Below are positions 18,468 through 43,119 of a stretch of 64,000 bases of DNA, piece after piece. Position 1 is the first letter of the stretch. Every line of letters begins with the position of its first letter. The stretch spans positions 254,986 through 318,985 of the forward strand of contig CAZNAA010000001.1 in assembly GCA_964571255.1 (NCBI GenBank). Reading direction: 5' to 3'. The translations under genes were made by a program, and so were the position numbers. The stretch is from an uncultured Gammaproteobacteria bacterium (GTDB taxonomy: Bacteria > Patescibacteriota > Microgenomatia > Levybacterales > UBA12049). The notes under the pieces are model-generated. The model was given only the letters and a program-made list of their open reading frames with translations. It was not told the DNA's origin and searched no databases.

Positions 18468-18472
18468 GTATG

Positions 18473-21127: not shown

Positions 21128-21153
21128 ACCTGCCTAAGTGAGGTATTGGCAAC

Positions 21154-21441
21154 TTATCTTTGTCCAACTGTATCAATAAGAGGAAACTTAAGACGAACGA
21201 GTTCCCAAAACTTTTCTGAAAGATTCTCACTAAACTTCCCAAATCTACTATTCTCACTTTTACTACATAAATCATTTTCGTATCTTCTGATAACTCGGAG
21301 TACTTTCGAGCCAACTGTATAAAATTCTTCTTCCTGTTCTATGTCTCCTGATTTCACTTGATCGTGAAGTGTTTGAAATTCAGAGAAAAGATCTGAACAG
21401 TCATCAAGCATAGTTTGAAACATTTTCTCGTATTTACTCAT
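21154..21441 (-). CDS. Hypothetical small protein upstream of mutS
   Basis: 95-aa ORF in the mutS leader on the same strand; no motif recognised. Confidence 0.35.
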   Translation of the reverse strand: MSKYEKMFQTMLDDCSDLFSEFQTLHDQVKSGDIEQEEEFYTVGSKVLRVIRRYENDLCSKSENSRFGKFSENLSEKFWELVRLKFPLIDTVGQR

Positions 21442-21475
21442 ATCGATATTTATCGTACTCTATACCAATAATCCT

Positions 21476-22024
21476 ATGCAACTTACATTTGTTACTGGCA
21501 ATGATGAAAAAGTAAAAGAAGCGCAAGCAATTTTGGGGTTTCCTATTGAGATCAAAAAGGTTGATTTGGATGAAATTCAACATACCGACATAACAGAAGT
21601 GGTAAAGCAAAAAGCTAAAGATGCCTATGCGATTGTTCAGTCTCCTGTTATTGTCGATGATGTGGGATTTTATGTTGACGTTTGGAATGGATTTCCTGGA
21701 CCATTTGTAAAATTCATCAGACAAAACGATACAAATGACTTACTTCTTTATTTGATGAGACAGGAAACAAATAGAAAAATAAAAGCAGTTTCAGCTATTG
21801 GATTTTATGATGGGAAAACAGCTGAGGCATTTATTGGAGAGATGGAGGGAAAATTGACAACAGAGGAACGAGGAAAAGGATGGGGCTTTGATCCTATTAT
21901 TATTCCTCTTGGATATACCCAAACAGTTGGAGAGTTAGGAGATGAGATCAAAAATACGCTTTCTCATAGAAAGCATTCTCTTGAAAAATTCAGAGAATTT
22001 CTTAAAGACTATTCTCCTAAGTAG
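21476..22024 (+). CDS. rdgB: dITP/XTP pyrophosphatase (Ham1/RdgB family)
   Basis: MQLTFVTGNDEKVKEAQAILG N-terminal signature; 182 aa. Confidence 0.85.
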   Translation: MQLTFVTGNDEKVKEAQAILGFPIEIKKVDLDEIQHTDITEVVKQKAKDAYAIVQSPVIVDDVGFYVDVWNGFPGPFVKFIRQNDTNDLLLYLMRQETNRKIKAVSAIGFYDGKTAEAFIGEMEGKLTTEERGKGWGFDPIIIPLGYTQTVGELGDEIKNTLSHRKHSLEKFREFLKDYSPK

Positions 22025-23399
22025 TTTTAAAATATGTATCCTTTATCTTCATCCAATATGGTTCTTGTCTGCATAATTTCTTCTCGTCGTCCTTATCCTC
22101 TAGAATGTATTTAATAGCTTCTTCTAGATAAAGGGTATTCTGAGAGCCTTTGACTAGTAAGATCGTTTTATGAGGCATATATGCCTTTAAATACCGTCCT
22201 GCATCATGAGCTGTAGAAAACCATCTGATTTCTTTAGTTACTTTATTCACTTTGTTATCAACATACGCAATGATGTGTTCTAGAGTTAAAGGGCCAATAC
22301 AATACAAATACTCAACAGTTTCTGAAATTTTCTCAGCTACTTCTCTATGTTCTCCTTTCGCTTCGCCACCTAACTCCCTCATATCTCCAAGAAGAAGAGC
22401 TGAGGGCCGTTTGTGCTTTCTGGATAGATCAGAGAGAAGAGACAAAAATGCTAGAACAGAAAGTTTTGAGGCGTTATAGGAAGAGTCAATAATAACTGAT
22501 TTGCCTATTCCTTCAAACATACTGCTTCTTCCTTTTGGAAGAGTGAAGTTTTTCTCAAGAGCTGTAGTTATTTGAAAGGTTGATAAGCCTAGCTCCTTCC
22601 CTGCTAGAAAAGTAGCAGCAAATAATTCTCGATATTCTTTCAAGAGGAGGAGTTTTTTAAAGGTAAGAGCCGCTTTTTCTTCTTTTGTAGCTTTGTATAA
22701 GAAGCGATAAGATGTTCCTTCAAGAGTAGTTGCGTGATCAATATAAGAAACAGTATTCTCTTTCTCTTCTCCAAACGTGAGTATTTTTGTTGCTGGGTTA
22801 CTCCAGTAAGCAAAGACTTGTTTTAAATAGGCATCATCTTTATTGTAAATTCCCACCTTGCACCCACTCCCAGTTATAATCTTTGCATCCTCCTCTGCCA
22901 TTTTTTGCAAAAGATATTCATGTTTTTCCTCTGCAGTTGCGTTCTTTGGTGCTTTATCTTCATCAAGTATCTTTTCAAATTGCTCAGTATGAGTTGCTGC
23001 AATATTTAAAGAAATAGCAATATGTGGTTTCACAATAGATAAAAGGTAGGACATGTTTTTAGGAGGGTATGGGTCATCAATTCCCATTTCAACGATAAGA
23101 TATTTGGTTCCTTTAAGGTAATTTATGCCTTTTGGAGCAAGAAGAAGCATTTCAACCCAGTTTTTTTTGGAAAAGCCTGAAGGAGTGATTCCTAAAATCC
23201 CAAGAGGAATCCCTGTTTCTGAATTCCCCACCATTTTTACAGAGTAATATTCATTCAGTACGGCAAAGAGTGCATTTCGGGTTGAGGACTTGCCAACACT
23301 GCCTGCAATTCCAACAACTGTAGGGCGATGTAGTAGAAGAGCAATTTTAGCTAAGTAGCGAAGGTAAGTAAGAACGATCCACACTCCAATTTCTCTCAT
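22017..23399 (-). CDS. Mur ligase family protein, MurF-like (UDP-MurNAc-tripeptide:D-Ala-D-Ala ligase)
   Basis: P-loop VGIAGSVGKSST, GNSETGIPLGILG, DSSYNAS motifs. Confidence 0.7.
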   Translation of the reverse strand: MREIGVWIVLTYLRYLAKIALLLHRPTVVGIAGSVGKSSTRNALFAVLNEYYSVKMVGNSETGIPLGILGITPSGFSKKNWVEMLLLAPKGINYLKGTKYLIVEMGIDDPYPPKNMSYLLSIVKPHIAISLNIAATHTEQFEKILDEDKAPKNATAEEKHEYLLQKMAEEDAKIITGSGCKVGIYNKDDAYLKQVFAYWSNPATKILTFGEEKENTVSYIDHATTLEGTSYRFLYKATKEEKAALTFKKLLLLKEYRELFAATFLAGKELGLSTFQITTALEKNFTLPKGRSSMFEGIGKSVIIDSSYNASKLSVLAFLSLLSDLSRKHKRPSALLLGDMRELGGEAKGEHREVAEKISETVEYLYCIGPLTLEHIIAYVDNKVNKVTKEIRWFSTAHDAGRYLKAYMPHKTILLVKGSQNTLYLEEAIKYILEDKDDEKKLCRQEPYWMKIKDTYFKTT

Positions 23400-23441
23400 A
23401 GATATATTATATCAAGGGACATGCAACTCTGTTAGAGTGTA

Positions 23442-23756
23442 TTATTTAAAAATTAACTCTCTTTTGCCTTCCGCGAAATCATGAAGCAAAGCTCCTAGTA
23501 ATGTTTGATAAGGGATTTGTTTTCTTTTAGCTTTTGCTTTAATTTTGATTAAATCAAGTTGATTAATTCTTAATGTAACTGGTTTAGAGGTATGTAATTC
23601 CAAATATCGAGCTGCTGCTTCTTGTAACATACGCTTTGTACTCTCAAAGTTGGCATCTTCCTTGAATTCATCTCTTTCAAAAGCTTCTTCGAGAAGCTTT
23701 TCTTCTTCATCCAGAATTTGATTAATAAATGGATCTTGGTGTTTTGTCTTTTTCAT
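23442..23756 (-). CDS. brnA: BrnA-type antitoxin
   Basis: 104 aa, C-terminal KQIPYQTLLGALLHDFAEGK typical of BrnA; overlaps the upstream brnT stop by 4 nt. Confidence 0.65.
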   Translation of the reverse strand: MKKTKHQDPFINQILDEEEKLLEEAFERDEFKEDANFESTKRMLQEAAARYLELHTSKPVTLRINQLDLIKIKAKAKRKQIPYQTLLGALLHDFAEGKRELIFK

Positions 23757-24040
23757 AATCTCTCCTTTTTTATATATCGATTTGTTAAAACTCGACTGGC
23801 ATACATAGTTTTAAGAAAAATCTCTCTTTTTTTTTGATTAATTATGTATGGTACGGCATAGGCATAATTATTTATTGCTAGTATATAGATACGTTGATGT
23901 TTATAAACCCTACTAGAATGAGCAACATTTACTAGGACATTCCCTTTTTCAATAGCAGCGACTGCATCATCAAAATTAACTCCTCTTGTGGCTTTTAGAA
24001 GTTGGTTTTTTTCTTCATTAAACCTAATGGTCAAAGCCAT
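23753..24040 (-). CDS. brnT: BrnT-type ribonuclease toxin (DUF497)
   Basis: IRFNEEKNQLLKATRGVNFDDAVAAI...RIYILAINNYAYAVPYI...YASRVLTNRY matches the DUF497/BrnT consensus spacing. Confidence 0.7.
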   Translation of the reverse strand: MALTIRFNEEKNQLLKATRGVNFDDAVAAIEKGNVLVNVAHSSRVYKHQRIYILAINNYAYAVPYIINQKKREIFLKTMYASRVLTNRYIKKERL

Positions 24041-24146
24041 AACAAAATAATACCAATATGTACATTAATTGTCAATACAAATAATCTGTGGGAATAACTA
24101 AGTTAATACCTTTGATTTAACAAAAGATTTTTCAAATGACAAATAT

Positions 24147-24491
24147 TTAAAATCCAAAGGATTGTTTAACAATAAGCCAGAACTTTCCCCACCCCGATGC
24201 TTTTTGATAGGCAAGATAACGGTTTCTTTTTTTCTCATCCTGAGTTCCACTCATTGGAGGGTCCATCCAGGCAGAAACGATAATCCATTCGTACCTTTCA
24301 TTTTGTTTACAAATAAGAGTAACTTTATAGGTATCAAATCGCTTAATATATTCTGTCGTTCCATATTGTTTTCCTTTTATTGATTGATCTGGAGAGTTAA
24401 AGGTTTGATAAATATAGGAATCAGGTATCTTTCGCTCTTGAATACGATCTTTAGCGTGATTGGTAAGAATATATGAACTCACAATGCCCAA
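24147..24491 (-). CDS. DUF4258 family protein (putative toxin-like)
   Basis: N-terminal HAKDRIQERKI resembles the DUF4258 HA-x-eR-x-eR signature; 114 aa. Confidence 0.45.
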   Translation of the reverse strand: MGIVSSYILTNHAKDRIQERKIPDSYIYQTFNSPDQSIKGKQYGTTEYIKRFDTYKVTLICKQNERYEWIIVSAWMDPPMSGTQDEKKRNRYLAYQKASGWGKFWLIVKQSFGF

Positions 24492-24973
24492 TTCTCCTTA
24501 AAACTTTTCGGAAGAGTAAATCCTGCCATGGTAAAGTAGGAAATAAATTGTCCATGATGAAGTCTTTCATGAGAAATAAGACTAGTAATATGAGTTATGA
24601 GTGGTTGGTTAAACCCTGGCCAAGCGATCTTATACTCTTCCTCTTCTCTTTTTGATCGGATTACTTCAATCCACTTTCTGTCTGATTCTTTAAGAAAAGC
24701 AAGAAGAGAAGGTTTATCTTTAAACTCTGACTTATCTGGAAGTGATGGTGAGGAGAATAAAGAAAAATCCATTTCTCCTGAGATGACTGCTTCTGTATAG
24801 ACCATTTGTGTTCTACCAATACAGCCAAATTCCCAAAAAAGTGGTTGCCACTTCTCCCCCTCTGGCTTAAAGGATAATTCCGAGTCAGAAAGGGAATTTA
24901 AAATAGCAAGAGTTTCGCTTCTAGTAAAGTTCCAACTTCGTACGAAATTTGTTACGAGATCTTTGTATTGCAT
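24479..24973 (-). CDS. DinB/YfiT-like (DinB_2) putative metal-dependent hydrolase
   Basis: Conserved His positions including HERLHHGQ near C-terminus; 164 aa. Confidence 0.55.
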   Translation of the reverse strand: MQYKDLVTNFVRSWNFTRSETLAILNSLSDSELSFKPEGEKWQPLFWEFGCIGRTQMVYTEAVISGEMDFSLFSSPSLPDKSEFKDKPSLLAFLKESDRKWIEVIRSKREEEEYKIAWPGFNQPLITHITSLISHERLHHGQFISYFTMAGFTLPKSFKENWAL

Positions 24974-24975
24974 AG

Positions 24976-25599
24976 CTATTCGTACAAATCTTCCAGAAGA
25001 TGTCCTGGCTTTGGCCCTCTGGCTGGACTATGTTCTCGTCCATAGAGAATTAGGAGGTGAGGAAAATCAATCCAGTATTCTTTTGGGACAATTCTCATCA
25101 AATCCTCCTCAATTTTTTCAGGAGTTTTCTGATCAGTTAAGCCAAGAAGAGTTGATAGTCTCATAACGTGAGTGTCTACGACTACTCCTTCAGCTATTCC
25201 AAATGCATTTCCCAATACAACATTGGCTGTTTTTCTGGCAACTCCTGGAAGCGCATCTAGTTCTTCCATAGTATGTGGAACTTCTCCATTGTGTTGAGTC
25301 ACTATCATTTCACAGGCTCCTTTAATTGACTTAGCTTTATTTTGATGGAAGTTTACTTTTCTAATCATCTCATCAATCTCCTCCACTTGAGCTGAGGCAA
25401 AATCGTTTGCTGATTTGAATTTTTCAAAAAGAGCAGGAGTTAGGGTATTTACTAACTTATCGGTAGCTTGTGCTGACATAATGGTAGCAATAAGAAGCTG
25501 AAGAGGAGTTTTGAATTCTAGGGCTGTTTTGGGATGGGGATAAAGTGTATAGAGTCTTTTGATAATCTCTTTTACTTTGTCTTCACGAGTCATATTCAT
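24976..25599 (-). CDS. nth: Endonuclease III-like HhH-GPD DNA glycosylase lacking the [4Fe-4S] cysteine cluster
   Basis: HhH motif LDALPGVARKTANVVLGNAFG, catalytic Lys/Asp context. The C-terminus HLLILYGREHSPARGPKPG has no Cys where Nth carries Cx6Cx2Cx5C. Confidence 0.8.
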   Translation of the reverse strand: MNMTREDKVKEIIKRLYTLYPHPKTALEFKTPLQLLIATIMSAQATDKLVNTLTPALFEKFKSANDFASAQVEEIDEMIRKVNFHQNKAKSIKGACEMIVTQHNGEVPHTMEELDALPGVARKTANVVLGNAFGIAEGVVVDTHVMRLSTLLGLTDQKTPEKIEEDLMRIVPKEYWIDFPHLLILYGREHSPARGPKPGHLLEDLYE

Positions 25600-27464: not shown

Positions 27465-28031
27465 ATGGAGTTAATCCCCTACCTATCTCTTGCAGTAATC
27501 GTTTTCTTTATTAACTGCTTTCCCGCTTTCATGCCTCCTACCTGGTCTATTCTCGCTTTTTTTTATATCACCTATCACCTTCCCGTTATTCCTCTTATTC
27601 TTATTGGAGTTTTATTTGCAACATTAGGAAGAATTGTTTTGTACTACATTGCGAAGTATTTAGGGAAATATATTTTCCCTACGTCTTCTAAAGAAAATTT
27701 AGAATTTCTAGGCAAGTACTTAAATACAAAAAAACATATCTCAATTCCCTTTTTCCTTACTTGTGCATTTATTCCTCTTCCTTCAAACCAACTCTTTATT
27801 ACCGCTGGACTTGCAAGAGCGAATATTCTTCTTTTATCAATCTCTTTTGCCTTTGGAAGACTCTTTAGTTATTCCTGGACTGTTCTTACTTCAGCCTTTG
27901 TGATTAACAACACATCAGTTGAGCTTTCTTTTACTCCTCAAATAAACTTTCTTATTCAAATAGGAGCACTTGCTAGTGTGTACTTTATTGGATTTATTCC
28001 TTGGAAAAAAATCTTAAAAGGAAGATTATAG
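27465..28031 (+). CDS. Small membrane protein, possibly DedA/VTT-like
   Basis: 188 aa, 4-5 TM helices, IPLPSNQLFITAGLARAN resembles the VTT-domain motif. Confidence 0.4.
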   Translation: MELIPYLSLAVIVFFINCFPAFMPPTWSILAFFYITYHLPVIPLILIGVLFATLGRIVLYYIAKYLGKYIFPTSSKENLEFLGKYLNTKKHISIPFFLTCAFIPLPSNQLFITAGLARANILLLSISFAFGRLFSYSWTVLTSAFVINNTSVELSFTPQINFLIQIGALASVYFIGFIPWKKILKGRL

Positions 28032-28619
28032 TGACTTTTCTGTGTGAGTTTGAAAAAGAGATAGAAACGTTTCGTTTTGAGAAAGGAGTAGTGCTTCTTC
28101 TTCAGACCAGGGTGAATACGTCCCTGGATGCTTCTTGATTGTTTCAAGATACGTTTCCCAAGGAATCCATTGTATTTTCTCTACTTCATCAGGATTTGGC
28201 GTAGGATGTTGTGTCGTAAATCCTATGAGTACTGGACAAAACTCATGCTCAACTATTCCTAAGTATTCAAATCGGTAACTATATCGAGAAAGAATTTCAA
28301 AAAGAGAAAAATCAGTCATACCTAATTCAAACTGAGCCCGTCTTCTTGCTACTTGTTCATTGGTTTCTCCAAGAGTGTGATGTCCACAGCAACTATTTGA
28401 CCAGATAAGGGGCCAGGTTTTTTTCATATGACTTCTCTGCTGAAGTAAAAGTTCTCCTTGTGGGTTAAATAGGAATAAGGAGAAAGCACGATGCAAAGGA
28501 GTATTGGTATTATGAGTTTCTAGTTTTGGCGCTGTTCCTAGTTCATTATTTTCAGTATCAACTAAAATGACGTAGTCGGTTTGATCAGCTGGTGTTCCTT
28601 GTCCTGGGGAAAGTTGCAT
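28026..28619 (-). CDS. idi: Isopentenyl-diphosphate delta-isomerase, type 1
   Basis: HRAFSLFLFNPQGELLLQQRSHMKKTWPLIWSNSCCGHHTLGE: IDI-1 Cys/Glu active-site motifs. Confidence 0.85.
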   Translation of the reverse strand: MQLSPGQGTPADQTDYVILVDTENNELGTAPKLETHNTNTPLHRAFSLFLFNPQGELLLQQRSHMKKTWPLIWSNSCCGHHTLGETNEQVARRRAQFELGMTDFSLFEILSRYSYRFEYLGIVEHEFCPVLIGFTTQHPTPNPDEVEKIQWIPWETYLETIKKHPGTYSPWSEEEALLLSQNETFLSLFQTHTEKSL

Positions 28620-29334
28620 ATATAGTTAAAAAGATAAAGATAGTATATATAACTCCCACAAAAATAGGAATAGCATAACCTTTAACTAAAACCACACCTG
28701 TCCAAAAACTAAGAAGAAATAAAAGACTATATACACCTGATAACGGAAGGGATTTTTGTATTTTTTTATACCAAAAATAATAAAGTAAAGCTCCGGTTAA
28801 TATCCACCCCAAAAAGTTCATAAGAGGAACTTGGTAAAACATGCCTCCTTTTTCGTATGTCCATAATCCCATCGCAACTGCTCCTGGATCTATTACTAAG
28901 TCTGTTGCCATAAGAAGAAATGGTGCTGTAACTAAAGGAGAAAATTGTTTAGGAAGATATGAGACTAGAGAAAGTACTCCCAAAAAGAGAGGAATAAATC
29001 CTAATGGAACAATGAGAGGGGTAAGAAAAAATAGTTTAGGTAATAAATATGATGCATAGATAAAATGACCGTAGGGGTATCCCGTAAGTAAGGCGATAGT
29101 TTCTATAGCTAAAATACATCCAGCAAGTATAAGTAAAATACGAATTCCTTCTTTCCTCCCCCATATACGTATGCAGGTAATACAAACTGGTAATGCAAAA
29201 AGAAGTGGAATGAGAAATGCTATTACACTATTTGATGGAAGAGATATATTTCCAACACCAACGCCCCCTAAAAAGAGTGTTATAGATAAAAAAAGAAGAA
29301 TTTTCATAAGAATCGTACTCCTAATAATAACCAT
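28585..29334 (-). CDS. Carotenoid biosynthesis membrane protein (CruF/PF04240-like or fused lycopene-cyclase-domain protein)
   Basis: 249-aa polytopic membrane protein embedded in the crt operon between the UbiA prenyltransferase and idi; overlaps both neighbours. Confidence 0.5.
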   Translation of the reverse strand: MVIIRSTILMKILLFLSITLFLGGVGVGNISLPSNSVIAFLIPLLFALPVCITCIRIWGRKEGIRILLILAGCILAIETIALLTGYPYGHFIYASYLLPKLFFLTPLIVPLGFIPLFLGVLSLVSYLPKQFSPLVTAPFLLMATDLVIDPGAVAMGLWTYEKGGMFYQVPLMNFLGWILTGALLYYFWYKKIQKSLPLSGVYSLLFLLSFWTGVVLVKGYAIPIFVGVIYTIFIFLTIYATFPRTRNTS

Positions 29335-30143
29335 ATTAGTAATCCTGTGACAAGATTAAGTTGAGGAAAATACCAATATATTTTTACGAGTTGTTCTTTC
29401 GATGCGTATAGTAAACATAAGGGAAGAAGAGGGTAAATACTTCCTAAGAGGAAAAGTGGTGACCAAGTAGTTGCTAATAACATACTACTACTCCATAAAA
29501 ACGTACAGAGAAGAAGACTTTTTTTTGTTCCAAGATATACAGCAGTCGTTATTATACCTGCTTTTTTGTCATAGACGATATCAGGAATTGCTGAGAATAA
29601 ATGCATTGCACTTAGCCAACACCAAGTCGATAGGATAATACTAATAGATGGAATATCTCCTGTAAGATCTGTATAAACAAAGAATCCAGGAAGTGCGTAT
29701 AGAATATTTGAGGCAGAATCAAGAAAAAGACGTGATTTAAATCTAATAGGTTTTAGGCTATAAAATAAACTAAGAAAAATAAAAAGACTTAAGATACTAA
29801 GTGATAGGAATGTTTTGAATATAAAGAATAGTGGAATAAGCAATGTAAAAGATATTCCAATAGCAGAAAGATACAATTTGTAAGTGTTTTTTTTAATCTG
29901 TATCTCTTTATCCAGTTTTTTTGGATTGTTACTATCTGTGTCTGCGTCTGAGATGTCATTTACTCCGTACAAGATGATATTTGCTGGAATGAGAAACCAA
30001 AAAAAAGTGTACCAAAAAGAAAAAGAAGTAAAAAAACTGAGTGAAGCTGTTCCAGCAATACTACCTACTAAGAATGGTCCAGCCAGATAAAACCAAAATC
30101 GTGGTCTGGAAAGAGAAAGAAAGGTGGAAACGGTTGATTTCAT
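29304..30143 (-). CDS. UbiA-family prenyltransferase (lycopene elongase CrtEb/LyeJ-like)
   Basis: NDISDADTD (NDxxDxxxD) motif, 8-9 TM helices, operonic with crtI/crtB. Confidence 0.75.
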   Translation of the reverse strand: MKSTVSTFLSLSRPRFWFYLAGPFLVGSIAGTASLSFFTSFSFWYTFFWFLIPANIILYGVNDISDADTDSNNPKKLDKEIQIKKNTYKLYLSAIGISFTLLIPLFFIFKTFLSLSILSLFIFLSLFYSLKPIRFKSRLFLDSASNILYALPGFFVYTDLTGDIPSISIILSTWCWLSAMHLFSAIPDIVYDKKAGIITTAVYLGTKKSLLLCTFLWSSSMLLATTWSPLFLLGSIYPLLPLCLLYASKEQLVKIYWYFPQLNLVTGLLIWLLLGVRFL

Positions 30144-31204
30144 ACTTTACGCTGTAAATTGTACTGTAGAAATTCTGATAAAATATTTCTTGGATCTCCT
30201 GCAGGTAAACTCTCAATCAGAGTTGTTGCTTCGGTTACGAAAGTAGAAAGAATAGTATCAATGTGACGACTAATATTATATTTGGTATAGTATTCTCTCA
30301 GTTGCACTAGTTGTTGTGTAGAAAGAGTATCGTTTCCAAAACATTTCTCTAGAAACTCTTTGTGTATGTCTGGTGTATGTTCAAAAAGTAGTTGTCTGAT
30401 AAGAGTTTTTTTATTTTCTCTAATATCTGAACCTTCAGGTTTTCCTATTTCGGTTGATTTTCCTAGAAATCCTATTTCATCATCTTTGATCTGAAAAATT
30501 ATCCCTATACTTTTCCCTAATTCTTCTAGAGTCTGACATAAAGACTCAGATGCCCCTGCTTTATTGGCACCAAGAAGAAGTGGAAGAACAACGGAGTAAT
30601 ATGCTGTTTTATTTAAATAGATAGAGAGAATTTGTTCACTTGTTGCAGTATCTTTTGTCATTCCTAAGCGAAAATCAAGCATCTGAGCAAAAATACATCT
30701 TTCAAATGTGTGAGTATACCAAGTAAAACTACTATTAGAAACATGAGATGACTCTCCTGTTAGTCCTTTACTTAATGTTTCAAATGCAAGAAAGAAACAA
30801 ATATCACCAGCACAAATTCCCATCCCTTGACCAAAGAAAAGTGAATTTTTAACTTGTTCTTCCTTTCCTTTGTCAGCATATTGTGCATAAATTGTTTTTT
30901 CACCTCGTCTTAGCTCATCCTGATCCATAATATCGTCATGAATCAACGCTCCGGCTTGTGTTAGTTCCATCGCAACTGCTAGATCTAATACTTCATCTAT
31001 TTTTTTCCCTCCAGCCATTTCGTAGCCAAGCAGTACCAGGATAGGACGTAACATTTTCCCTTTTGAGGTAAATATTTCTAATCGATTAAGAAGCTCAACT
31101 GCTTGTTCATCATATGAAAAAAAAGTTCGTTTTTCTGCAAAAAACCGTTGAAGTTTAATCGTGATAAATGGTTTATTTGTGGTAATATATTTTTTTAAGT
31201 TCAT
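30140..31204 (-). CDS. Polyprenyl (geranylgeranyl) diphosphate synthase
   Basis: FARM motif ALIHDDIMDQD; second motif GIIFQIKDDEIG (degenerate DDxxD). Confidence 0.8.
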   Translation of the reverse strand: MNLKKYITTNKPFITIKLQRFFAEKRTFFSYDEQAVELLNRLEIFTSKGKMLRPILVLLGYEMAGGKKIDEVLDLAVAMELTQAGALIHDDIMDQDELRRGEKTIYAQYADKGKEEQVKNSLFFGQGMGICAGDICFFLAFETLSKGLTGESSHVSNSSFTWYTHTFERCIFAQMLDFRLGMTKDTATSEQILSIYLNKTAYYSVVLPLLLGANKAGASESLCQTLEELGKSIGIIFQIKDDEIGFLGKSTEIGKPEGSDIRENKKTLIRQLLFEHTPDIHKEFLEKCFGNDTLSTQQLVQLREYYTKYNISRHIDTILSTFVTEATTLIESLPAGDPRNILSEFLQYNLQRKV

Positions 31205-32004
31205 GAGCTAAACATATTTTTAAATATAGTTAGTATAACAAGTCTTTTATTTGGTTTTACTTTTTTTCTCCAAATAACACTTGGATCTTTTTCAATTTGT
31301 TTCGCTGTCCATTTATACATATCTCCTGCAGTTTTAATCGGAACAAGGTATCTTTTAGGAATATATTTATACCCTTTTTCAGCCTCAATTTGCAACTCTG
31401 AGAATCTTTTTAGTTCAAATTGAATAAATTTTTTTACATCCTTAGTATAAACAGAAAGAGTTTGAATGTGAAATTTCTCTAATTCTACTTTTGGTAGGTA
31501 GGTTCTTCCTAGTGAAATATCTTCTGTAATATCTCGAAGCATATTTATAAACTGCATTGATTCTCCAAGTTTTTGAGCGTACGGATAGGATTTTTCAGGG
31601 AGAGATAAAATTTTTGCCATAAACAACCCGATTACTTCAGCAGAGCCATAAATATATTTTTTTAGGGTATGATATGTCTGATATTTATTAATAGTTAAAT
31701 CCATTTCTAAAGAGTATAAAAATGCTTTTGTCCATTCTGTTTTAAATTGTTTCTTTCTTGACAGTTCAACAAATTCTTGAATAATAAGATTTTCGCTCTT
31801 TCCACTTATAAGTGCTGCCAGTGTCTCTATTTTAAAGTCTTGAAATGCTTTTTTATTTTGAGGAAGTGTATCTACAAAGTCATCAGCTGTTCTTACAAAG
31901 GCATATAAAGTAAATACATCTTCTTTTACCTCTCTAGGAAAAAATAGACTAGCAGTGTGAAAAGTAACACTGGCGTTTTTAAAAATAAGGTGTTTATTGT
32001 TCAT
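31201..32004 (-). CDS. crtB: Phytoene (squalene/phytoene family) synthase
   Basis: YAFVRTADDFVD Asp-rich motif, second motif region MQFINMLRDITED. Confidence 0.8.
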   Translation of the reverse strand: MNNKHLIFKNASVTFHTASLFFPREVKEDVFTLYAFVRTADDFVDTLPQNKKAFQDFKIETLAALISGKSENLIIQEFVELSRKKQFKTEWTKAFLYSLEMDLTINKYQTYHTLKKYIYGSAEVIGLFMAKILSLPEKSYPYAQKLGESMQFINMLRDITEDISLGRTYLPKVELEKFHIQTLSVYTKDVKKFIQFELKRFSELQIEAEKGYKYIPKRYLVPIKTAGDMYKWTAKQIEKDPSVIWRKKVKPNKRLVILTIFKNMFSS

Positions 32005-33487
32005 GATGAATTCGATTAGCTACTAATTCAGCTGAGATAAGACAAATTGGCATTCCAATTCCAGGTTGGGTATATTGTCCAACAAAATACAGATTTGAAA
32101 CCTTTTTACTTTTGTTTTGTGGTCGAAAAAAAGCTGTTTGAAATAATGTATGAGCAAGTCCTAATGCTGTTCCTTTGTAGGCATTATATCTTCCTTGAAA
32201 GTCTCGTTGGGTGAAAATCCTTTTTACCACTATTCTATCTTGAAATCGTTCATCGATTTGTTTTTCTAAATCTGAAAGTACCTGTTTTGCGTACTTTTCT
32301 CTTTGTACATCTGTATCTTTTAAGCCTGAGGCAATAGGTGTGAGGAAAAAAATATTTTCTGAATCTTTAGGAGCTACAGATGAGTCAGACTTTGAAGGAG
32401 CACAAACATAATAAGACGGCTTTTTAGGCCAAGAAGGATTCTTGAAAATCTCATCAAAATGAGCTCTCCAATCATTAGCAAAGAAGAGATTATGATGAGA
32501 CAAGTTTTGTACTCGTCCCTTTATTCCTAGATACATAAGAAAAGTGGATGGAGCAAGTGTTTTCTTTTTCCAATATGATTCAGAGTATGTTTGCCATTCT
32601 TTCGTAAGTAATTGAGTCTCAACGTGATGATAATCAGCATTTGCTAGAACAATGTCTGCACGCAAAAGTTTCTTGTTACTTATTACACCAATTGCTTTCC
32701 CATTCTCAACAATAATCTGCTCAACAGATTCCTTTGTTTTAATAATCACCTCATTATCTTTACAAAGTGTTATTAATCCTTTTATAACTTCATACATTCC
32801 ACCCATCGGATAGAATACTCCCATATGAAAATCAATATGAGACATTAAAGAATAAAATGCGGGAGTATTATGGGGAGATCCTCCTAAAAACACAATCGTG
32901 TATTCTAAAATTTGTTTTATCCGTTCATCTTTTACGTATCCTGAAACAAAACTATCAAGCGATTTATAAATAGGGAGTTTACGACCCTCTCTCATAATAT
33001 CTTTTTTAAGAAAATCTGTAATCGAAGTGAAATTGTTATACAAAAGGTGTGTTACTGAAGCTACATACATTTTTTCAGCTTGTTCTAAATATTCGGAAAC
33101 TTTTTTACCAGCACCCTTTTCCATTTTTTCAAATAGTGCAAGATTTTCTTTTAAGTTTGATGAAATATCAACAAACTCTCCTGAGCCAAAAAAAACTCGG
33201 TATTGAGGATTTAATCGTTTAAGTTTAAAAAAATCACTTGGTTTTTTTCCAAAATAGGAAAAATATTTTTCAAATACATCTGGCATTAAATACCATGATG
33301 GTCCCATGTCAAAAGTAAACCCTTTTTCTGAAAAAATAGATGCTCTTCCTCCTACCATCTCATTTTTTTCAAGAAGGGTTACGCTATACCCCTTTTTTCC
33401 TAGAAGTGCTGCGGTAGCTAATCCACCAATTCCTCCACCAATTATAATAATTTTTTTCACTTCCTTATTATACAGATAGATTGACAA
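31994..33487 (-). CDS. crtI: Phytoene desaturase (CrtI family FAD-dependent oxidoreductase)
   Basis: Rossmann fold IIIGGGIGGLATAALLGKKGYSVTLLEKNEMVGGRA, C-terminal GQYTQPGIGMPIC. Confidence 0.85.
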   Translation of the reverse strand: MSIYLYNKEVKKIIIIGGGIGGLATAALLGKKGYSVTLLEKNEMVGGRASIFSEKGFTFDMGPSWYLMPDVFEKYFSYFGKKPSDFFKLKRLNPQYRVFFGSGEFVDISSNLKENLALFEKMEKGAGKKVSEYLEQAEKMYVASVTHLLYNNFTSITDFLKKDIMREGRKLPIYKSLDSFVSGYVKDERIKQILEYTIVFLGGSPHNTPAFYSLMSHIDFHMGVFYPMGGMYEVIKGLITLCKDNEVIIKTKESVEQIIVENGKAIGVISNKKLLRADIVLANADYHHVETQLLTKEWQTYSESYWKKKTLAPSTFLMYLGIKGRVQNLSHHNLFFANDWRAHFDEIFKNPSWPKKPSYYVCAPSKSDSSVAPKDSENIFFLTPIASGLKDTDVQREKYAKQVLSDLEKQIDERFQDRIVVKRIFTQRDFQGRYNAYKGTALGLAHTLFQTAFFRPQNKSKKVSNLYFVGQYTQPGIGMPICLISAELVANRIHHEQ

Positions 33488-33508
33488 TTCAGGGGTACTT
33501 CTTCTAGG

Positions 33509-33871
33509 ATGAGTATGGGTATGGACAATTTTCTTATTTTTGTGCTTTCATCATGCCTTGCTTATCTTATCTTCTCTTATTTTACAGATTCGCCAAAGGA
33601 TTTAAAATCTAAAAAACACCGTCTCCCAAAATTAAAATATAAAAATGTAGAATTTTCTCCCTATGTACGTATTCATATACGAAAAAAAACATTTCATTTG
33701 CATCATTGGATTACTTTAACTTTTATTACAGGAATTACCTTCTTGTGGACAGATAGTTTTTCTCACTATTTACTTCTTAAGGCTGCAGGTATTGGTGGAA
33801 TTATTCAAGGACTAAGATACAAAGATAGATTTAAATTTTGGTATCCTCGAGGAACTGATCACAGGAGTTAA
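33509..33871 (+). CDS. Small membrane protein, uncharacterised
   Basis: 120-aa ORF with 3 hydrophobic segments; starts only 21 nt from the divergent crtI start, so the true start may be later. Confidence 0.3.
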   Translation: MSMGMDNFLIFVLSSCLAYLIFSYFTDSPKDLKSKKHRLPKLKYKNVEFSPYVRIHIRKKTFHLHHWITLTFITGITFLWTDSFSHYLLLKAAGIGGIIQGLRYKDRFKFWYPRGTDHRS

Positions 33872-39716: not shown

Positions 39717-41948
39717 ATGAAAAACATGAAACATATAACAAGAAAAATACTAACTATTTTATTAGTTCTTAATCTCATCTTTATGCAGGCTCCTCTCGCC
39801 TTTGCTGATGACATTACAGTTCCAACAGCTCCAAGTGCACCTAGTACTCCGAGTACTCCTTCAACCCCTGAAACACCTAGTGCAAATCCAGCAAGCTCAG
39901 GTATCTCTTCCCCTACTCCACCAAGTGCACCAACACTTGAGGAAGTTTTGGCAACTCCTACTCCTACCCCAACTGGTACATCTCAAGCCCAAGCAGCAGT
40001 TACTCCATCAGCAGACTCTTCTTCTCAACAAGTTGCAAGTAATGGAGATGACAGTGATATTCAAGGCTCAGGAGGAGTAAACGCAAGCGGAAATGCTGGA
40101 GATACAATTATTTCAACAGGCAACTCGACCAATTCAGCAGTTTCAACTGCTCAAGCAAATACTAATCTCTCAACAGGTGGTGGGAGTACAACCGGACAGG
40201 GTCAAGGAGGATCAGCGGTTAGTAATTCTAACAACGGAGCAGGAAGTGCTAATACTTCAACAAATGATGAAGCTAGTGCCAAAGTAACTAATCAACAAAA
40301 CAGTGCAACTGTTGATAATTCACTCACCCAATCAACCACTACAGGAAAAAACACATCCAGTGACAATATGGGTAATACAATCATTAACACAGGAGATGCG
40401 AATGTCTCAGGAACTGCTATTACCTCAGTTAATACCAATATGGATGGAGTAATGGTAGCTGAGTTTAATATCGCTGATGATCACAAGGGTGATATTGTTT
40501 TAGATTTTGTTTCTAATTGTATTTCTGGCTGCTCCGGAGGAAACGGAAGCGCTTCAAACAAGAACAATGGAGCAAATTCTACTAATAACGCAACCAATAA
40601 CAGTACTTCAAGTAACACAACTAATCAAGACAACACAGCAACAACAGGAAATACCTTAAACCTTTCAGCCGATTCTGGAAGTAACGAAGGAAGTCGAAAT
40701 ACCAATGGAGATACTACTATTAACACAGGAGATGCAAATGTTTCTGCTAACTCTCTCACCTTTGCAAATAATAACTTCTCAGGAAACGTTGTCTATGGAG
40801 TTGTCAATATCTATGGCAATCTTGAAGGAGACATTATTCTTCCTCAAGGAGCAATTGATGCTATTCCAACAGCTGACAAAGATGCAAGTGGTAATTCAAA
40901 TAATGGAGCTGGATCAAATAACTCAACAGCAAATAACGTTTCAAATACCGATGCATCTTTCCAAAATAATGATGCCAGTATTAGTAATGAACTTGTGTTT
41001 GATGCTAATACCGGACAAAACACGGGGAGTATGAACACCAATGGAACAACGACAACTAAGACAGGTAATGCAAACGTAACAGCTAATGCCCTAAACATTG
41101 CTAATTCTAACCTTAATGGTGGCACGTGGTGGTTAATTCTGATCAATGACGGTGGGAACTGGGTTGGAAAAATCGTTGGACTTGATGATGATGCTACTAT
41201 GGCTGGATCTCAAGGCACAGAGTTTACTAAAGACGAAAATGGAACTATTAATGCTACCAGAAATGATGGTAACGGAGTTGGATCAAATAACACAGCTACG
41301 AATAATAGTACGAATACCAATACAACCACTCAAAATAACAAAGCAAACGTTAAAAACACCATGAATCTTTCTGCTAATACTGGAAAAAATGATACCAGTT
41401 ACAACACAGGGGGAAATAACAATATAAACACTGGGGATGCAAATATTACGGCTAACATGGTTAACTTTGTAAACAACAATGTCACTGGTGGAGGAAAACT
41501 CATTGTAACAGTTGTCAATGTATTTGGCAGTTGGCTTGGAGACTTTGTTACTCCAGATCAACAAAAACAACCAAAGTCTAGTGCTAAGTTACTTACTAGT
41601 GCTCAAACACAAAATCAAGAAACTACGTCATCAGGAGTAACTCCTACCCCTACTCCAACAACCTCACAACAAACAGTAGCTTCTGTTGCGCTAAGTACAG
41701 CAAAGAACTTACTCTCAGTCTCTGTTCCTGGAGGAAGTTCTTCTTCAGAGTCTCAAACAACTGTAGGAGTTTCAGGAGGAACAAATGAAGTATCAGTAAC
41801 AGGAAATGGTACAGAAAGTTTGGTTAAAGGAACAAGTACACATAATGATACATTGACTTTGAATCTTGCATGGTTAATACTGGCTTTGCCACTAGGACTT
41901 ATCCTATTTGCAGGACGAAAAGTATTAAGACGATTTAAAACTGCCTAA
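39717..41948 (+). CDS. Secreted modular repeat protein B (743 aa) with Pro/Ser/Thr-rich N-linker, four ~100-aa modules and C-terminal hydrophobic anchor
   Basis: Signal peptide, PSTPSTPETPS linker, modules NNGAGS.NTS...NTGDANV.AN, each ending in a hydrophobic Trp/Gly motif (WWLILINDGGNWVGKIVG; IVTVVNVFGSWLGDFV); C-terminal LAWLILALPLGLILFAGRKVLRRFKTA; no LPXTG. Confidence 0.7.
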   Translation: MKNMKHITRKILTILLVLNLIFMQAPLAFADDITVPTAPSAPSTPSTPSTPETPSANPASSGISSPTPPSAPTLEEVLATPTPTPTGTSQAQAAVTPSADSSSQQVASNGDDSDIQGSGGVNASGNAGDTIISTGNSTNSAVSTAQANTNLSTGGGSTTGQGQGGSAVSNSNNGAGSANTSTNDEASAKVTNQQNSATVDNSLTQSTTTGKNTSSDNMGNTIINTGDANVSGTAITSVNTNMDGVMVAEFNIADDHKGDIVLDFVSNCISGCSGGNGSASNKNNGANSTNNATNNSTSSNTTNQDNTATTGNTLNLSADSGSNEGSRNTNGDTTINTGDANVSANSLTFANNNFSGNVVYGVVNIYGNLEGDIILPQGAIDAIPTADKDASGNSNNGAGSNNSTANNVSNTDASFQNNDASISNELVFDANTGQNTGSMNTNGTTTTKTGNANVTANALNIANSNLNGGTWWLILINDGGNWVGKIVGLDDDATMAGSQGTEFTKDENGTINATRNDGNGVGSNNTATNNSTNTNTTTQNNKANVKNTMNLSANTGKNDTSYNTGGNNNINTGDANITANMVNFVNNNVTGGGKLIVTVVNVFGSWLGDFVTPDQQKQPKSSAKLLTSAQTQNQETTSSGVTPTPTPTTSQQTVASVALSTAKNLLSVSVPGGSSSSESQTTVGVSGGTNEVSVTGNGTESLVKGTSTHNDTLTLNLAWLILALPLGLILFAGRKVLRRFKTA

Positions 41949-41997
41949 CTTAGATACACTGCCTCGTATCGAAAGTATTCTGCCCCAATCTAAACGT

Positions 41998-43119
41998 ATG
42001 AAACAAATCCATATTATTTTTGGACTTATTATTTTATTATCACCATCTCTTGCCTATGCTGATGAGATTGTAGTAACAGATAATGGAGCAGCATCAGTAA
42101 ATACAGCAGAATCTAATAACTCTCAAACAACTGTTGTACAACAAAATAATACAGCTACTGTTACCAATGTAGTTACGTCTTCTTCTAATACAGGAGATAA
42201 TCAAGCAAACAATACAACGGGTGGAAATACTGCTATTTCAACAGGAAATGCCACTACAGTAACAGATGTATCAACAAGTGGAAATAACTCAGTTAGCAAC
42301 GCAGGATGCTGTGTAGAGACTCAAGACAGCTCTGTAACGGTTAGTGGAAATGGAGCAATCTCAGTCAACTCAGGAAGTGCAAATCAGAACACTACAGTAA
42401 GTCAAACATCCAACAACACGATGTCTTTAACAAATACAGTTAAAGGAGTAGCAAATACTGGAGGAAATGTTGCTAATAGTTCCAATGGAAATGTGTATAT
42501 TGAAACTGGAAAAGTAACAATTATTACAAAAAATGAGAACGGTCCTATTAATACTGCTATCAACCAAGCTGGTGTCTCCACTCAATCACATACAAATCTC
42601 AAAATCTCAGGCAATGGAGCTGGATCAGTTAACTCAGTAACTGCCTCAAATGTATTTACCGTTACCCAAGTTGAAAATAACGTAGCAAATATTATTAATG
42701 ATATCTATTCCAATGGAAACTCAGGGGGAAATACAGCCTCTTTCACTGTTGGTGACGTTGTGATTAAAACAGGAGATGTGAGTATTCTTAATTATATTAA
42801 AAATGGACCAATCAACACTTCAATCTCAGAAGTAATTTGCTGTGATCCTGGTGAGAAAACACCTCCAACAGATAATCCTCCTACCACTCCTCCATCAAAC
42901 CCAGGAGGAGGAAGTGTAACAACAAATAATCCTGGAGGAGGGTCAAGTGGAAGTTCCAACGGAAGTAGTGGATCAACGAATAATCCTGGAAATGGTAGAG
43001 TTCTCCCTGCAACAGGTAACATTGGATATCTTCTTGCAATCCTTGCAAATACGCTTCTTCTTCTCTTCGGTGGTTGGCTAAGACTGCGCGCTGGAAACTC
43101 TCCAGGGTTTCTGATGTAG
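41998..43119 (+). CDS. LPXTG-anchored modular repeat protein C (cell-wall sorting signal LPATG)
   Basis: Signal peptide, same repeat family (VTDNGAASVNTAESNN...), Cys pairs AGCCVET and ICCDPGE, Pro/Thr-rich stalk, LPATG + hydrophobic stretch + RLRAGN tail. Confidence 0.75.
   Translation: MKQIHIIFGLIILLSPSLAYADEIVVTDNGAASVNTAESNNSQTTVVQQNNTATVTNVVTSSSNTGDNQANNTTGGNTAISTGNATTVTDVSTSGNNSVSNAGCCVETQDSSVTVSGNGAISVNSGSANQNTTVSQTSNNTMSLTNTVKGVANTGGNVANSSNGNVYIETGKVTIITKNENGPINTAINQAGVSTQSHTNLKISGNGAGSVNSVTASNVFTVTQVENNVANIINDIYSNGNSGGNTASFTVGDVVIKTGDVSILNYIKNGPINTSISEVICCDPGEKTPPTDNPPTTPPSNPGGGSVTTNNPGGGSSGSSNGSSGSTNNPGNGRVLPATGNIGYLLAILANTLLLLFGGWLRLRAGNSPGFLM

Follow-up and report, generated by a model that had tools for sequence, protein, structure and literature searches.

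Six consecutive minus-strand ORFs at positions 28026-33487 of the window (the whole 64-kb stretch of DNA analysed) form a carotenoid operon. Quite likely it gives its host, a CPR bacterium of the Microgenomates group, a self-contained route that starts from IPP and ends in a bacterioruberin-type carotenoid, acyclic, hydroxylated and lengthened by C5 units (C45/C50). We infer all catalytic activities, the product and the physiological role of the operon.

Operon organisation and conservation

The ORF listing gives the same coordinates at which a sequence-only reading had proposed one operon with overlapping ends, and an overlap is found at every junction: 11 nt for crtI/crtB, 4 nt of the ATGA type at each of crtB/ids, ids/lyeJ and lyeJ/cruF, and 35 nt for cruF/idi. 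Such short ATGA overlaps point to genes that are translationally coupled and expressed at a fixed stoichiometry. All six family assignments made in that reading held in profile searches (Table 1).

Table 1. Features of the operon and its upstream region
Feature	Position	Strand	Remarks
crtI/crtD-type FAD desaturase (CrtID family)	31994..33487	-	497 aa from TTG 33487; 488 aa from GTG 33460
Phytoene-synthase-like head-to-head prenyl condensing enzyme, crtB (inferred)	31201..32004	-	267 aa
trans-Prenyl diphosphate synthase (ids), probably GGPP synthase (crtE/idsA-like)	30140..31204	-	354 aa
UbiA-family lycopene elongase/1,2-hydratase homolog (lyeJ-like)	29304..30143	-	279 aa
CruF-like polytopic membrane protein (PF04240), candidate C50 carotenoid 2'',3''-hydratase	28585..29307	-	240 aa; 249 aa from alternative start 29334
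Type-1 isopentenyl-diphosphate delta-isomerase (idi)	28026..28619	-	197 aa
Short upstream region, possible promoter	33461..33508	-	conserved TATAAT box 33472-33467

For crtI the GTG start is more likely than the TTG, since the gene call of the sister species is 488 aa long. The TATAAT box then lies 6 nt before the start codon, and the upstream sequence AATTGTCAATCT..CTGTATAATAAG..GTGAAAAAA is kept in both the window and the sister locus L084; this region is a possible promoter, perhaps of a leaderless transcript. In a generic promoter scan sites were no commoner than in shuffled sequence.

In the sister species the same six genes form an operon of identical layout with identical neighbours, typA on one side and vtt188/MFS/nth on the other, at a synonymous divergence from the window of 0.5-1.7 substitutions per site. 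Purifying selection acts on each of the six genes, with dN/dS against the sister orthologs of 0.06-0.15 (desaturase 0.056, crtB 0.072, lyeJ-like gene 0.095, prenyl synthase 0.106, idi 0.113 and cruF-like gene 0.149; the desaturase and Idi are 88% and 90% identical to their orthologs), and together with the identical gene order this rules out a chance string of ORFs. By its TypA relatives the organism belongs to the Levybacteria/Roizmanbacteria group. It is a CPR bacterium of the Microgenomates group, with a tiny genome and probably symbiotic.

The early enzymes

The isomerase passes both NF002995 (200.7 bits, cutoff 127) and TIGR02150 (139 bits, cutoff 105.8), can be aligned to the Idi structures of Salmonella and E. 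coli, and has the NSxCGH Cys and the ExE motifs intact. In other lyeJ clusters Idi is fused to a CruF-like domain (P0258) or, in Armatimonadota, to a GT2 domain, which ties it to the pathway. Genes of neither the mevalonate nor the MEP route turned up in the 64-kb window, which counts against the presumed IPP supply; most Microgenomates, by a published report (PMC6107057), possess the mevalonate route together with IDI-I.

The prenyl synthase (PF00348, 159 bits) has as its best solved relative the Corynebacterium glutamicum GGPP synthase 3lk5 (113 bits), with which it shares residues before the first Asp-rich motif (QAGALIHDDIMD vs QACALIHDDIID), the second best being the FPP synthase 8f8f. 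It probably makes GGPP, as read from similarity in the chain-length region, and in many CPR-type loci ids likewise sits between crtB and lyeJ. The condensing enzyme matches PF00494 SQS_PSY at 156 bits and retains both Asp-rich motifs (DDFVD at residue 41 and DITED at residue 158); every NCBIfam equivalog cutoff is missed (HpnD 121, HpnC 95 and CrtB 72-89 bits), and among solved structures the phytoene synthase 5iys (60 bits) is followed closely by CrtM (56 bits). It is 38-52% identical to the crtB genes that lie beside lyeJ in 70 of 80 related loci, which suggests a phytoene-synthase-like CrtB.

The late enzymes

On the NF058655 CrtID model the desaturase scores 693.8 bits, above the curated equivalog cutoff of 640, where CrtI/D of the Halosimplex cluster, used as calibration, scores 735.8. 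It also matches TIGR02734 crtI_fam at 502 bits and has a GxGxxG motif at residue 8 of the 488-aa form. By family it is thus a CrtID, and would act as a bifunctional phytoene/3,4-desaturase. CrtI-type desaturases require O2 or a quinone as electron acceptor, as does Pantoea CrtI, and quinones are usually absent from CPR bacteria; this need counts against the proposed pathway in such a host.

The UbiA-family enzyme reaches 270.4 bits on NF009516/PRK12875 (cutoff 205; LyeJ of the canonical Halosimplex cluster gives 433.8 as calibration) and just 20-35 bits on MqnP, MenA, UbiA/4-HB and other prenyltransferase models with cutoffs of 180-414. The lycopene-elongase-like identity first proposed for it stands, no grouping with menaquinone or other UbiA families having appeared, and the NDxxDxxxD motif noted at the time is present as NDISDADTD at residue 62, which like DIVYD at residue 188 is invariant in 33 homologs. 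JGI names homologs 'lycopene elongase/hydratase', and the NCBI product name of PRK12875 is just 'prenyltransferase'. The AF2 model (pLDDT 94) has a UbiA fold, and its top hit in the PDB is AfUbiA in complex with DMAPP and Mg2+. The protein is LyeJ-type by family, with elongation as its predicted activity. Bacterial and archaeal lineages are intermixed in the LyeJ tree, the LyeJ of the window being placed with other low-GC, CPR-type sequences, apart from haloarchaea and Nanohaloarchaeota.

The membrane protein passes PF04240 (119 bits), the sole match in the profile search, and the fused lycopene-cyclase-domain identity that had been entertained for it is therefore not supported. It falls below the cutoffs of TIGR03460 (104.6 against 154.7 bits) and NF041333 (85.7 against 300 bits), although these bacterioruberin-type CruF models are its best and the gamma-carotene 1'-hydroxylase CruF gives 41.8 bits. 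In 36 homologs from CPR, DPANN, Asgard and haloarchaeal lineages 13 residues never vary, and the protein retains every one of them; it is a candidate C50 carotenoid 2'',3''-hydratase. The CruF/PF04240 type is one of the two that had been named from the sequence; in place of the length of 249 aa given then, the 240-aa form from ATG 29307 is favoured because public gene calls give it and an AGGAG box lies 10 nt upstream. The earlier C50/bacterioruberin-like reading as a whole is accordingly supported by the passed CrtID and PRK12875 cutoffs and the PF04240 match, and qualified by the missed CruF equivalog cutoffs.

A proposed pathway

In the proposed route Idi would interconvert IPP and DMAPP, the prenyl synthase would supply GGPP, and the CrtB-like enzyme would condense two GGPP to phytoene, which the single CrtID-type desaturase would take to lycopene, adding 3,4 double bonds later. 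The LyeJ-like enzyme would attach C5 from DMAPP at C-2 of one or both ends, water quenching the carbocation to leave a 1-hydroxyl, and the CruF-like protein would hydrate the added C5 units. DMAPP would so have two uses, priming GGPP synthesis and donating C5 for elongation, and an idi inside the operon would guarantee it for both. The pigment may span the membrane as a rigidifier and antioxidant.

Relation to known systems

The same three late enzymes occur in the same order and on the same strand in the Haloarcula japonica cluster crtI/crtD(c0507)-lyeJ(c0506)-cruF(c0505), whose pathway was defined by genetics (PMC11946383; Yatsunami et al. 2024); the cluster is also credited to Yang et al. 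2015, and lye of Halobacterium salinarum is related. Desaturase and elongase of the haloarchaeal (Halosimplex) trio match the same NCBIfam models, CrtID and PRK12875, and in both settings a single CrtI-family gene is predicted to serve phytoene and 3,4-desaturation. The window differs in adding crtB, the prenyl synthase and idi, and so the steps from IPP to the end product, to what in haloarchaea is a defined cluster of three late genes only, in having proteins just 33-43% identical to those of Halosimplex, in a CruF-like protein that lies under the equivalog cutoffs, and in its host, where an ultra-small CPR bacterium of low GC takes the place of a halophilic archaeon.

Patescibacteria from deep Lake Baikal (Haro-Moreno et al. 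2023, PMC9948471) share with the window the phylum-level host group, lyeJ, crtD and cruF, and a proposed role in membrane adaptation of small, cold-water cells. Their genes were reported unclustered, with cruF far from lyeJ/crtD or the genes on separate reads (PMC9948471), in contrast to the one overlapping operon here, in which the early steps and idi stand together with the late genes. Arthrobacter agilis and A. bussei (Flegler & Lipski, PMC8709818, PMC9122864) are bacterial, non-halophilic cases of the same pigment class, in which bacterioruberin is linked to membrane fluidity and cold growth; they are free-living high-GC actinobacteria with a demonstrated pigment. The decaprenoxanthin cluster of C. 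glutamicum, crtE-crtB-crtI-crtYe/Yf-crtEb (PMC3598387), also runs compactly from a GGPP synthase, the closest solved relative of the one here, to C50 products and uses a UbiA-family lycopene elongase; there the elongase is paired with a heterodimeric C50 cyclase to give cyclic C50 products, and the window has no cyclase. The elongase of the window scores 270 bits on PRK12875 against 94-105 bits on the other two UbiA-type models, PRK13105 and PRK13595. The pairing of elongase and membrane enzyme, at first described as a hallmark of C45/C50 pathways in haloarchaea and Actinobacteria, is of the haloarchaeal/Arthrobacter type (LyeJ with a CruF hydratase) and not of the Corynebacterium type (CrtEb with a C50 cyclase).

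Alternative readings

The product may depart from bacterioruberin: it could be a C40 carotenoid of the hydroxy-lycopene/rhodopin type, with the CruF-like protein as 1,2-hydratase, a C45 elongated at one end or, should the CruF-like protein have some other role, a bisanhydro-type C50 that is not hydrated. The missed bacterioruberin-hydratase cutoffs and the homology to gamma-carotene CruF allow this, as do the 45 of 80 loci without cruF nearby, where the LyeJ product may in some lineages be the end product; it is nonetheless unlikely, given the higher CruF scores on the archaeal/bacterioruberin models, a cruF-like gene directly after lyeJ as in haloarchaea, the retention of all invariant residues common to haloarchaeal CruF, and an elongase above its curated cutoff. 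Far less probable is a C30 backbone, with FPP from the prenyl synthase, a CrtM-like dehydrosqualene synthase and an elongase decorating a diapocarotenoid. The near-equal CrtM and phytoene synthase scores, the sub-cutoff HpnD and HpnC matches and the second rank of an FPP synthase would fit it, but the desaturase passes an equivalog built on C40 phytoene/3,4-desaturases, the condensing enzyme is 38-45% identical to crtB in Halorutilales and Nanosalina lyeJ clusters (L074, L021), and the prenyl synthase resembles a GGPP synthase first, chain-length-region residues included.

A horizontal island, newly acquired or in decay and without a function for the host, seems a highly improbable reading of the cluster. 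Its GC (0.29-0.34 in five genes) and GC3 (0.19-0.23) lie some 1-2 SD below the other genes of the window, the carotenoid genes are 77-90% identical to the sister's at the amino acid level where flanking housekeeping genes are 94-98%, and the LyeJ tree mixes domains. Against this stand intact ORFs with coupled overlaps, constraint on six of six genes, the same position in the sister species despite the synonymous divergence, a profile search of the neighbouring genes that found no flanking mobile-element genes, and the grouping of LyeJ with CPR-type rather than haloarchaeal sequences. Equally little credence goes to the UbiA enzyme and PF04240 protein serving a non-carotenoid isoprenoid pathway (quinone, heme O or archaeal-type lipid) as mere neighbours of crtI and crtB: the UbiA superfamily is broad and PRK12875 is generically named, yet scores on the other prenyltransferase models are very low and crtI and crtB recur near the enzyme across phyla.

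Distribution and biological meaning

Among 80 GTDB species loci, the best relatives of the elongase, genes were counted within the fetched flanks: crtI and crtB are each present in 70, ids in 36 and cruF in 35, with the exact order crtI-crtB-ids-lyeJ-cruF in 5 and no actinobacterial locus in the set. Many genomes of CPR, DPANN, Asgard and Armatimonadota carry the crtI-crtB-(ids)-lyeJ-(cruF) module; within CPR it is present in no fewer than 14 named species representatives, drawn from about nine lineages. To our knowledge no pigments or enzymes have been characterised from CPR organisms. The view that such an operon is unexpected in a small genome was overstated in light of this spread and of the lyeJ, crtD and cruF already published for Patescibacteria in 2023 (PMC9948471); the operon is a clean further example in a group with known carotenoid genes, and hence no new kind of system. 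A pigmented, membrane-protecting lifestyle of the host might follow from the proposed route, and if that is correct, this bacterium would have a red C50 pigment in its membrane, similar to the one made by salt-loving archaea.

Organisation of the operon

The six carotenoid genes are consecutive minus-strand ORFs, and the sequence-only reading had their span and their overlapping ends right, with two starts to be adjusted slightly. Three junctions (crtB/ids, ids/lyeJ and lyeJ/cruF) share a 4-nt ATGA start/stop overlap and at the remaining two crtI and crtB overlap by 11 nt and cruF and idi by 35 nt, so that all junctions of the six-gene unit overlap, a hallmark of translational coupling within an operon. 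In public gene calls the membrane protein encoded by cruF is 240 aa long, with an AGGAG box 10 nt upstream of its ATG, and crtI is called at 488 aa in the sister species, which in the window is the GTG and not the TTG. A TATAAT box shared with the sister species stops 6 nt short of this GTG, a spacing that hints at a leaderless or near-leaderless crtI transcript. A generic sigma-70 promoter scan was uninformative (34 sites vs 33.4 expected), and no terminator was found downstream of idi.

Two ORFs border the operon. Divergent from it, and overlapping the typA stop, is a 120-aa ORF (orf120) with predicted membrane segments and without a Pfam or NCBIfam hit; the sister species has ~95% identity over its C-terminal 82 aa, and the longer N-terminal part, too, looks conserved. 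At the other end a 188-aa membrane protein is convergent with idi, the ends overlapping by 6 nt; it has a weak, sub-threshold VTT/DedA match (21.6 bits), and its counterpart in the sister species shows 94% identity. DedA-family proteins have been linked to polyprenyl-phosphate recycling. Neither orf120 nor the VTT-like gene has homologs in 80 related loci and so they are not counted as parts of the system.

Coordinates of the operon genes and of other features discussed (positions in the window unless a locus is named)
Feature	Position	Strand	Remark
crtI (CrtID-type desaturase)	31994-33487	-	TTG at 33487; GTG at 33460
crtB-like (SQS_PSY)	31201-32004	-	
ids (prenyl synthase)	30140-31204	-	
lyeJ-like (UbiA-family elongase)	29304-30143	-	
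cruF-like (membrane protein)	28585-29334	-	240-aa form starts at 29307
idi (type-1)	28026-28619	-	
Gap between divergent ORF and crtI GTG	33461-33508	-	~48 nt
TATAAT box	33472-33467		
orf120	33509-33871	+	120 aa
VTT-like membrane protein	27465-28031	+	188 aa
DNA repair and sanitation genes	12406-25599 and 60969-62231		spans cited jointly
Cupredoxin-like protein	3470-3970	-	plastocyanin/azurin-like
Two large proteins, then sortase	39717-43731	+	743 and 373 aa
Fic/DOC-domain protein	55331-56464	-	
Fic/DOC-domain protein	58942-59985	+	
GT2-Idi fusion, Armatimonadota	L025:1280-2536		
GT2-Idi fusion, Armatimonadota	L043:7780-9039		
GT2-Idi fusion, Armatimonadota	L045:1393-2643		

Assignment of the enzymes

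Pfam and NCBIfam profile searches bear out every gene family proposed earlier from the sequence, and the predicted CrtID and LyeJ-type assignments sharpen two of them. LyeJ, of the UbiA superfamily, corresponds to NCBIfam NF009516 (PRK12875) and KEGG K20616, and the UbiA protein of the operon scores 270.4 bits on this model, passing the cutoff of 205. For calibration the crtI/D-lyeJ-cruF trio of a Halosimplex locus (L072) was scored against the same NCBIfam library; its LyeJ reaches 433.8 bits, and so PRK12875 is the model that covers haloarchaeal LyeJ, with Thorarchaeota and Armatimonadota homologs at 274 and 324 bits. The elongase has the Asp-rich motifs NDISDADTD (residue 62) and DIVYD (residue 188), neither of which varies among 33 homologs, and its AF2 model (pLDDT 94.1) has a UbiA fold, closest in the PDB to AfUbiA, the Archaeoglobus UbiA homolog, with DMAPP and Mg2+ (TM 0.65). 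In the window crtI lies upstream of the elongase gene and cruF immediately downstream. We infer that the protein is a lycopene elongase-hydratase, predicted to carry out C5 addition at C-2 of lycopene together with 1,2-hydration.

The desaturase passes the cutoff of NF058655 CrtID, the bifunctional phytoene desaturase/3,4-desaturase model, with 693.8 bits (cutoff 640), nearly level with the haloarchaeal enzyme (Halosimplex, 735.8 bits); the protein of one CPR-type locus, L007, scores 671.7. It is the one CrtI-family gene found among the scanned ORFs of the 64-kb window, and with the bifunctional assignment a separate crtD would be unneeded. Some related loci have a second, divergent crtI.

Idi, of the NUDIX superfamily, lies above the equivalog cutoffs for type-1 IPP isomerase (NF002995, 200.7 vs 127 bits; TIGR02150, 139.1 vs 105.8 bits) and keeps the catalytic Cys and Glu motifs, as NSCCGH and EHEFCPV, when aligned to Salmonella Idi (3hyq) and likewise to E. 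coli Idi. The prenyl synthase matches PF00348 with 159.5 bits, has its first Asp-rich motif, DDIMD, at residue 90, and is under every NCBIfam equivalog cutoff (best 152 vs 450 bits). Its best PDB match is the Corynebacterium glutamicum GGPP synthase 3lk5 and the two differ little in the residues before the first DDxxD, QAGALIHDDIMD in the prenyl synthase and QACALIHDDIID in 3lk5, so that the small residues at −4 and −5 would allow a C20 product in this subfamily; the enzyme is a predicted GGPP synthase.

Proposed pathway and alternative readings

From homology and synteny the product is probably a C5-elongated, hydroxylated acyclic carotenoid of bacterioruberin type. Idi would equilibrate IPP and DMAPP, the prenyl synthase would build GGPP and the CrtB-like enzyme would then make phytoene, which the CrtID-type desaturase would take to lycopene first, introducing 3,4-double bonds later. 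LyeJ would transfer a C5 unit from DMAPP onto C-2, with water captured at C-1, and the CruF-like protein would hydrate the added C5 units, so that the pathway would end in bacterioruberin or in its anhydro or C45 precursors. This enzymology follows the Haloarcula japonica genetics of Yang et al. 2015, as relayed in PMC11946383 and PMC9258230.

The main rival, a related but different end product, is unlikely and draws on the CruF-like protein being the least secure assignment of the operon. The best NCBIfam matches of this membrane protein are bacterioruberin-type CruF models, and it misses the cutoffs of both bisanhydrobacterioruberin hydratase equivalogs (TIGR03460, 104.6 vs 154.7 bits; NF041333, 85.7 vs 300 bits), for which reason it is labelled CruF-like and not an established equivalog; the CruF proteins of Halosimplex (204.7 and 432.8 bits) and Nanosalina pass both. 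The CruF-like proteins of other CPR-type, Woesearchaeota and Thorarchaeota clusters score 128-139 bits, also just under the CruF cutoff, and so the shortfall belongs to the whole non-halophile branch and not to the window gene alone. PF04240 is matched at 119.3 bits (cutoff 25) over residues 42-232 of the 249-aa form, and all 13 residues invariant across 36 CPR, DPANN, Asgard and haloarchaeal sequences, an alignment that takes in Halosimplex and Halorutilales, are kept (E69, G76, P78, Y79, F82, Y84, D136, D140, W149, P161, N164, G167 and W168 in 240-aa numbering). The protein is a candidate C50 carotenoid 2'',3''-hydratase. Between the two identities that the sequence-only reading had offered for it, the CruF type holds up, though under the equivalog cutoffs, and the fused lycopene-cyclase domain is rejected, PF04240 being the sole match.

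A C30 backbone is very unlikely. The SQS_PSY protein, which matches PF00494 with 156 bits and has the Asp-rich motifs DDFVD at residue 41 and DITED at residue 158, is under all NCBIfam equivalog cutoffs (HpnD 121.5 against 278.6, HpnC 95, CrtB 72-89 against 480-550 bits) and scores 60 bits on phytoene synthase vs 56 bits on CrtM in the PDB; its assignment as CrtB, the 15-cis-phytoene synthase, rests on operon context. A non-carotenoid role for the UbiA/PF04240 pair seems more improbable still, as the UbiA protein reaches only 20-35 bits on menaquinone, 4-hydroxybenzoate and other UbiA models, and the C50 reading made from the sequence, which grouping with menaquinone-type families was to overturn, survives. 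Just as improbable is a dead or foreign island. The GC and GC3 of the operon are only ~1-2 SD under those of the window's other genes, and no mobile-element genes flank it. In a sister species, represented by ENA and Logan contigs (loci L084-L086), the six-gene operon is identical, as is its neighbourhood from typA to MutS, and against this species all six genes have dN/dS of 0.06-0.15 at a synonymous divergence of 0.5-1.7, which is clear purifying selection. The operon is a stably inherited chromosomal one rather than a fresh island, and a carotenoid of bacterioruberin type stays the favoured product.

Distribution of the module

When one genome from each GTDB species was scanned with a pattern, 171 species proved to have an elongase relative, and the best 80 were fetched. 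By record title these 80 include 14 CPR genomes from about nine lineages (Roizman-, Davies-, Levyi-, Doudna-, Magasanik-, Gracili-, Sacchari-, Peri- and Paceibacteria), DPANN archaea (Woesearchaeota, Nanohaloarchaeota including Nanosalina, and one 'Micrarchaeota'), ~14 Asgard archaea, five Armatimonadota, Bathyarchaeia, Hadarchaeota and two haloarchaea. A further ~33 belong to one TPA MAG series labelled 'uncultured Gammaproteobacteria' or 'uncultured Pseudomonadales' (e.g. L010, L012-L015, L017-L019, L033), labels that are doubtful given the low GC and CPR-like gene order. The nearest GTDB-representative relative, L004 (JBFYLP010000002.1; elongase 47%, CrtI 56%), is labelled 'Candidatus Micrarchaeota archaeon'; it and the TPA loci are either mislabelled or reflect gene exchange between CPR and DPANN.

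Iterated HMM searches of the ORFs in flanks reaching up to 8 kb to either side of the elongase found crtI and crtB each in 70 of the best 80 loci, the prenyl synthase in 36, cruF in 35 and idi in ~8. The window's exact crtI-crtB-ids-lyeJ-cruF order occurs in 5/80 and cruF stands in front in 4/80; all six genes together were found in none of the 80 within the fetched flanks. Asgard loci (e.g. L037, L042, L044, L060, L062) have a second, divergent crtB-crtI pair on the strand opposite to crtI-lyeJ-cruF, with 25-31% identity to the window proteins, and often a second UbiA paralog, so that the carotenoid pathway of these clusters may be more elaborate.

A neighbour-joining tree of the elongase, built without support values, is deep and star-like. 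The window elongase falls among low-GC, CPR-type sequences, haloarchaea with Nanohaloarchaeota form a separate clade and the Asgard sequences another, and all LyeJ groups are set apart from the second UbiA paralog of the Asgard loci. The UbiA phylogeny had been proposed earlier as a check for horizontal origin, and this tree gives no sign of a recent transfer from haloarchaea. Nor is the operon as unexpected in a small genome as was first thought, since the module is broad across CPR, DPANN, Asgard and Armatimonadota and such genes were already noted in the literature.

Idi is found fused in some relatives. A hit of the CruF-like protein search from a Pyrinomonadaceae MAG (P0258) is a CruF-like/Idi fusion, the only CruF-Idi fusion found, and in three Armatimonadota loci a GT2 glycosyltransferase-Idi fusion directly follows lyeJ. 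These ~418-aa Armatimonadota ORFs had been considered as CruF-Idi fusions, which was rejected when Pfam showed GT2-Idi; the GT2 part suggests glycosylated C50 carotenoids there. Taken with the 35-nt cruF/idi overlap, the fusions tie type-1 Idi physically and repeatedly to late pathway steps, and such a link would make sense if the elongase draws on DMAPP.

Host and genomic surroundings

Elongase and TypA homologs carry the names Patescibacteria, Levybacteria, Roizmanbacteria and similar, and proteins identical to those of the operon are encoded on an NCBI contig of 772,860 bp and in the Logan assemblies SRR8893621, SRR8893622 and SRR8893624; homolog names and contig occurrences together make the host a Microgenomates-group CPR bacterium. 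None of the ~50 ORFs scanned in the 64-kb window is a mevalonate or MEP gene. Most Microgenomates are reported to have the mevalonate pathway with type-1 IDI (Hoshino & Gaucher, PMC6107057), and if it is present here too, IPP would be supplied and an isomerase would be necessary.

Beyond the operon, the window has many DNA repair genes, cell-envelope genes and hypothetical proteins, with BacA present. Repair and sanitation genes are dense near the operon (topoisomerase IB, NUDIX, UDG, MutL, MutS, Ham1, a DinB_2-family gene and endonuclease III), and a Y-family polymerase lies farther away. A cupredoxin of plastocyanin/azurin-like type in a CPR genome could be relevant to electron or oxygen handling in a quinone-less cell, for example CrtI reoxidation. 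Two large proteins without a Pfam match precede a sortase and may be surface proteins, and two Fic/DOC-domain proteins are also encoded.

Relation to known systems and significance

The closest known system is the haloarchaeal crtI/D-lyeJ-cruF cluster. Its three late enzymes recur in the window operon in unchanged order, extended by crtB, the prenyl synthase and idi into a single unit from IPP to product. In Patescibacteria of Lake Baikal, Haro-Moreno et al. 2023 reported lyeJ, crtD and cruF, for which they suggested a function in the membrane at low temperature (PMC9948471); those genes were reported as not clustered, whereas here they form one operon. A 2024 survey listed crtB, crtE, crtYf and ubiA in a Saccharimonas MAG (PMC11484240). 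With the key genes reported in Patescibacteria already in 2023 the finding is incremental, and what it adds is the compact six-gene form with idi, the selection evidence, the CrtID assignment and the breadth of the module across the groups surveyed. Haloarchaeal bacterioruberin-type enzymes failed to work in E. coli (PMC11946383), and an operon of ~5.4 kb, of low GC and non-halophile origin, is convenient for E. coli tests of this biosynthesis.

With so broad a phyletic spread, it may be asked where the bacterioruberin pathway arose. A tentative and somewhat unlikely reading is that the IPP-to-C50 module crtID-crtB-ids-lyeJ-cruF (± idi) is not peculiar to haloarchaea but an ancient kit for reinforcing membranes, exchanged widely among ultra-small and symbiotic prokaryotes (CPR, DPANN including Nanohaloarchaeota, and Asgard). 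On this reading haloarchaea would make up a single branch of its distribution and not the source, Idi, coupled physically through overlapping or fused genes, would supply the elongase with DMAPP, and the carotenoid would be the main self-made membrane lipid of a CPR cell unable to make fatty acids.

CPR bacteria are thought to be host-dependent for lipids and most building blocks. If the proposed pathway is right, a C50 carotenoid that spans the membrane would count among the few lipid-like molecules of their own making, and the operon would bear on how the membranes of such small cells are stabilised and protected.
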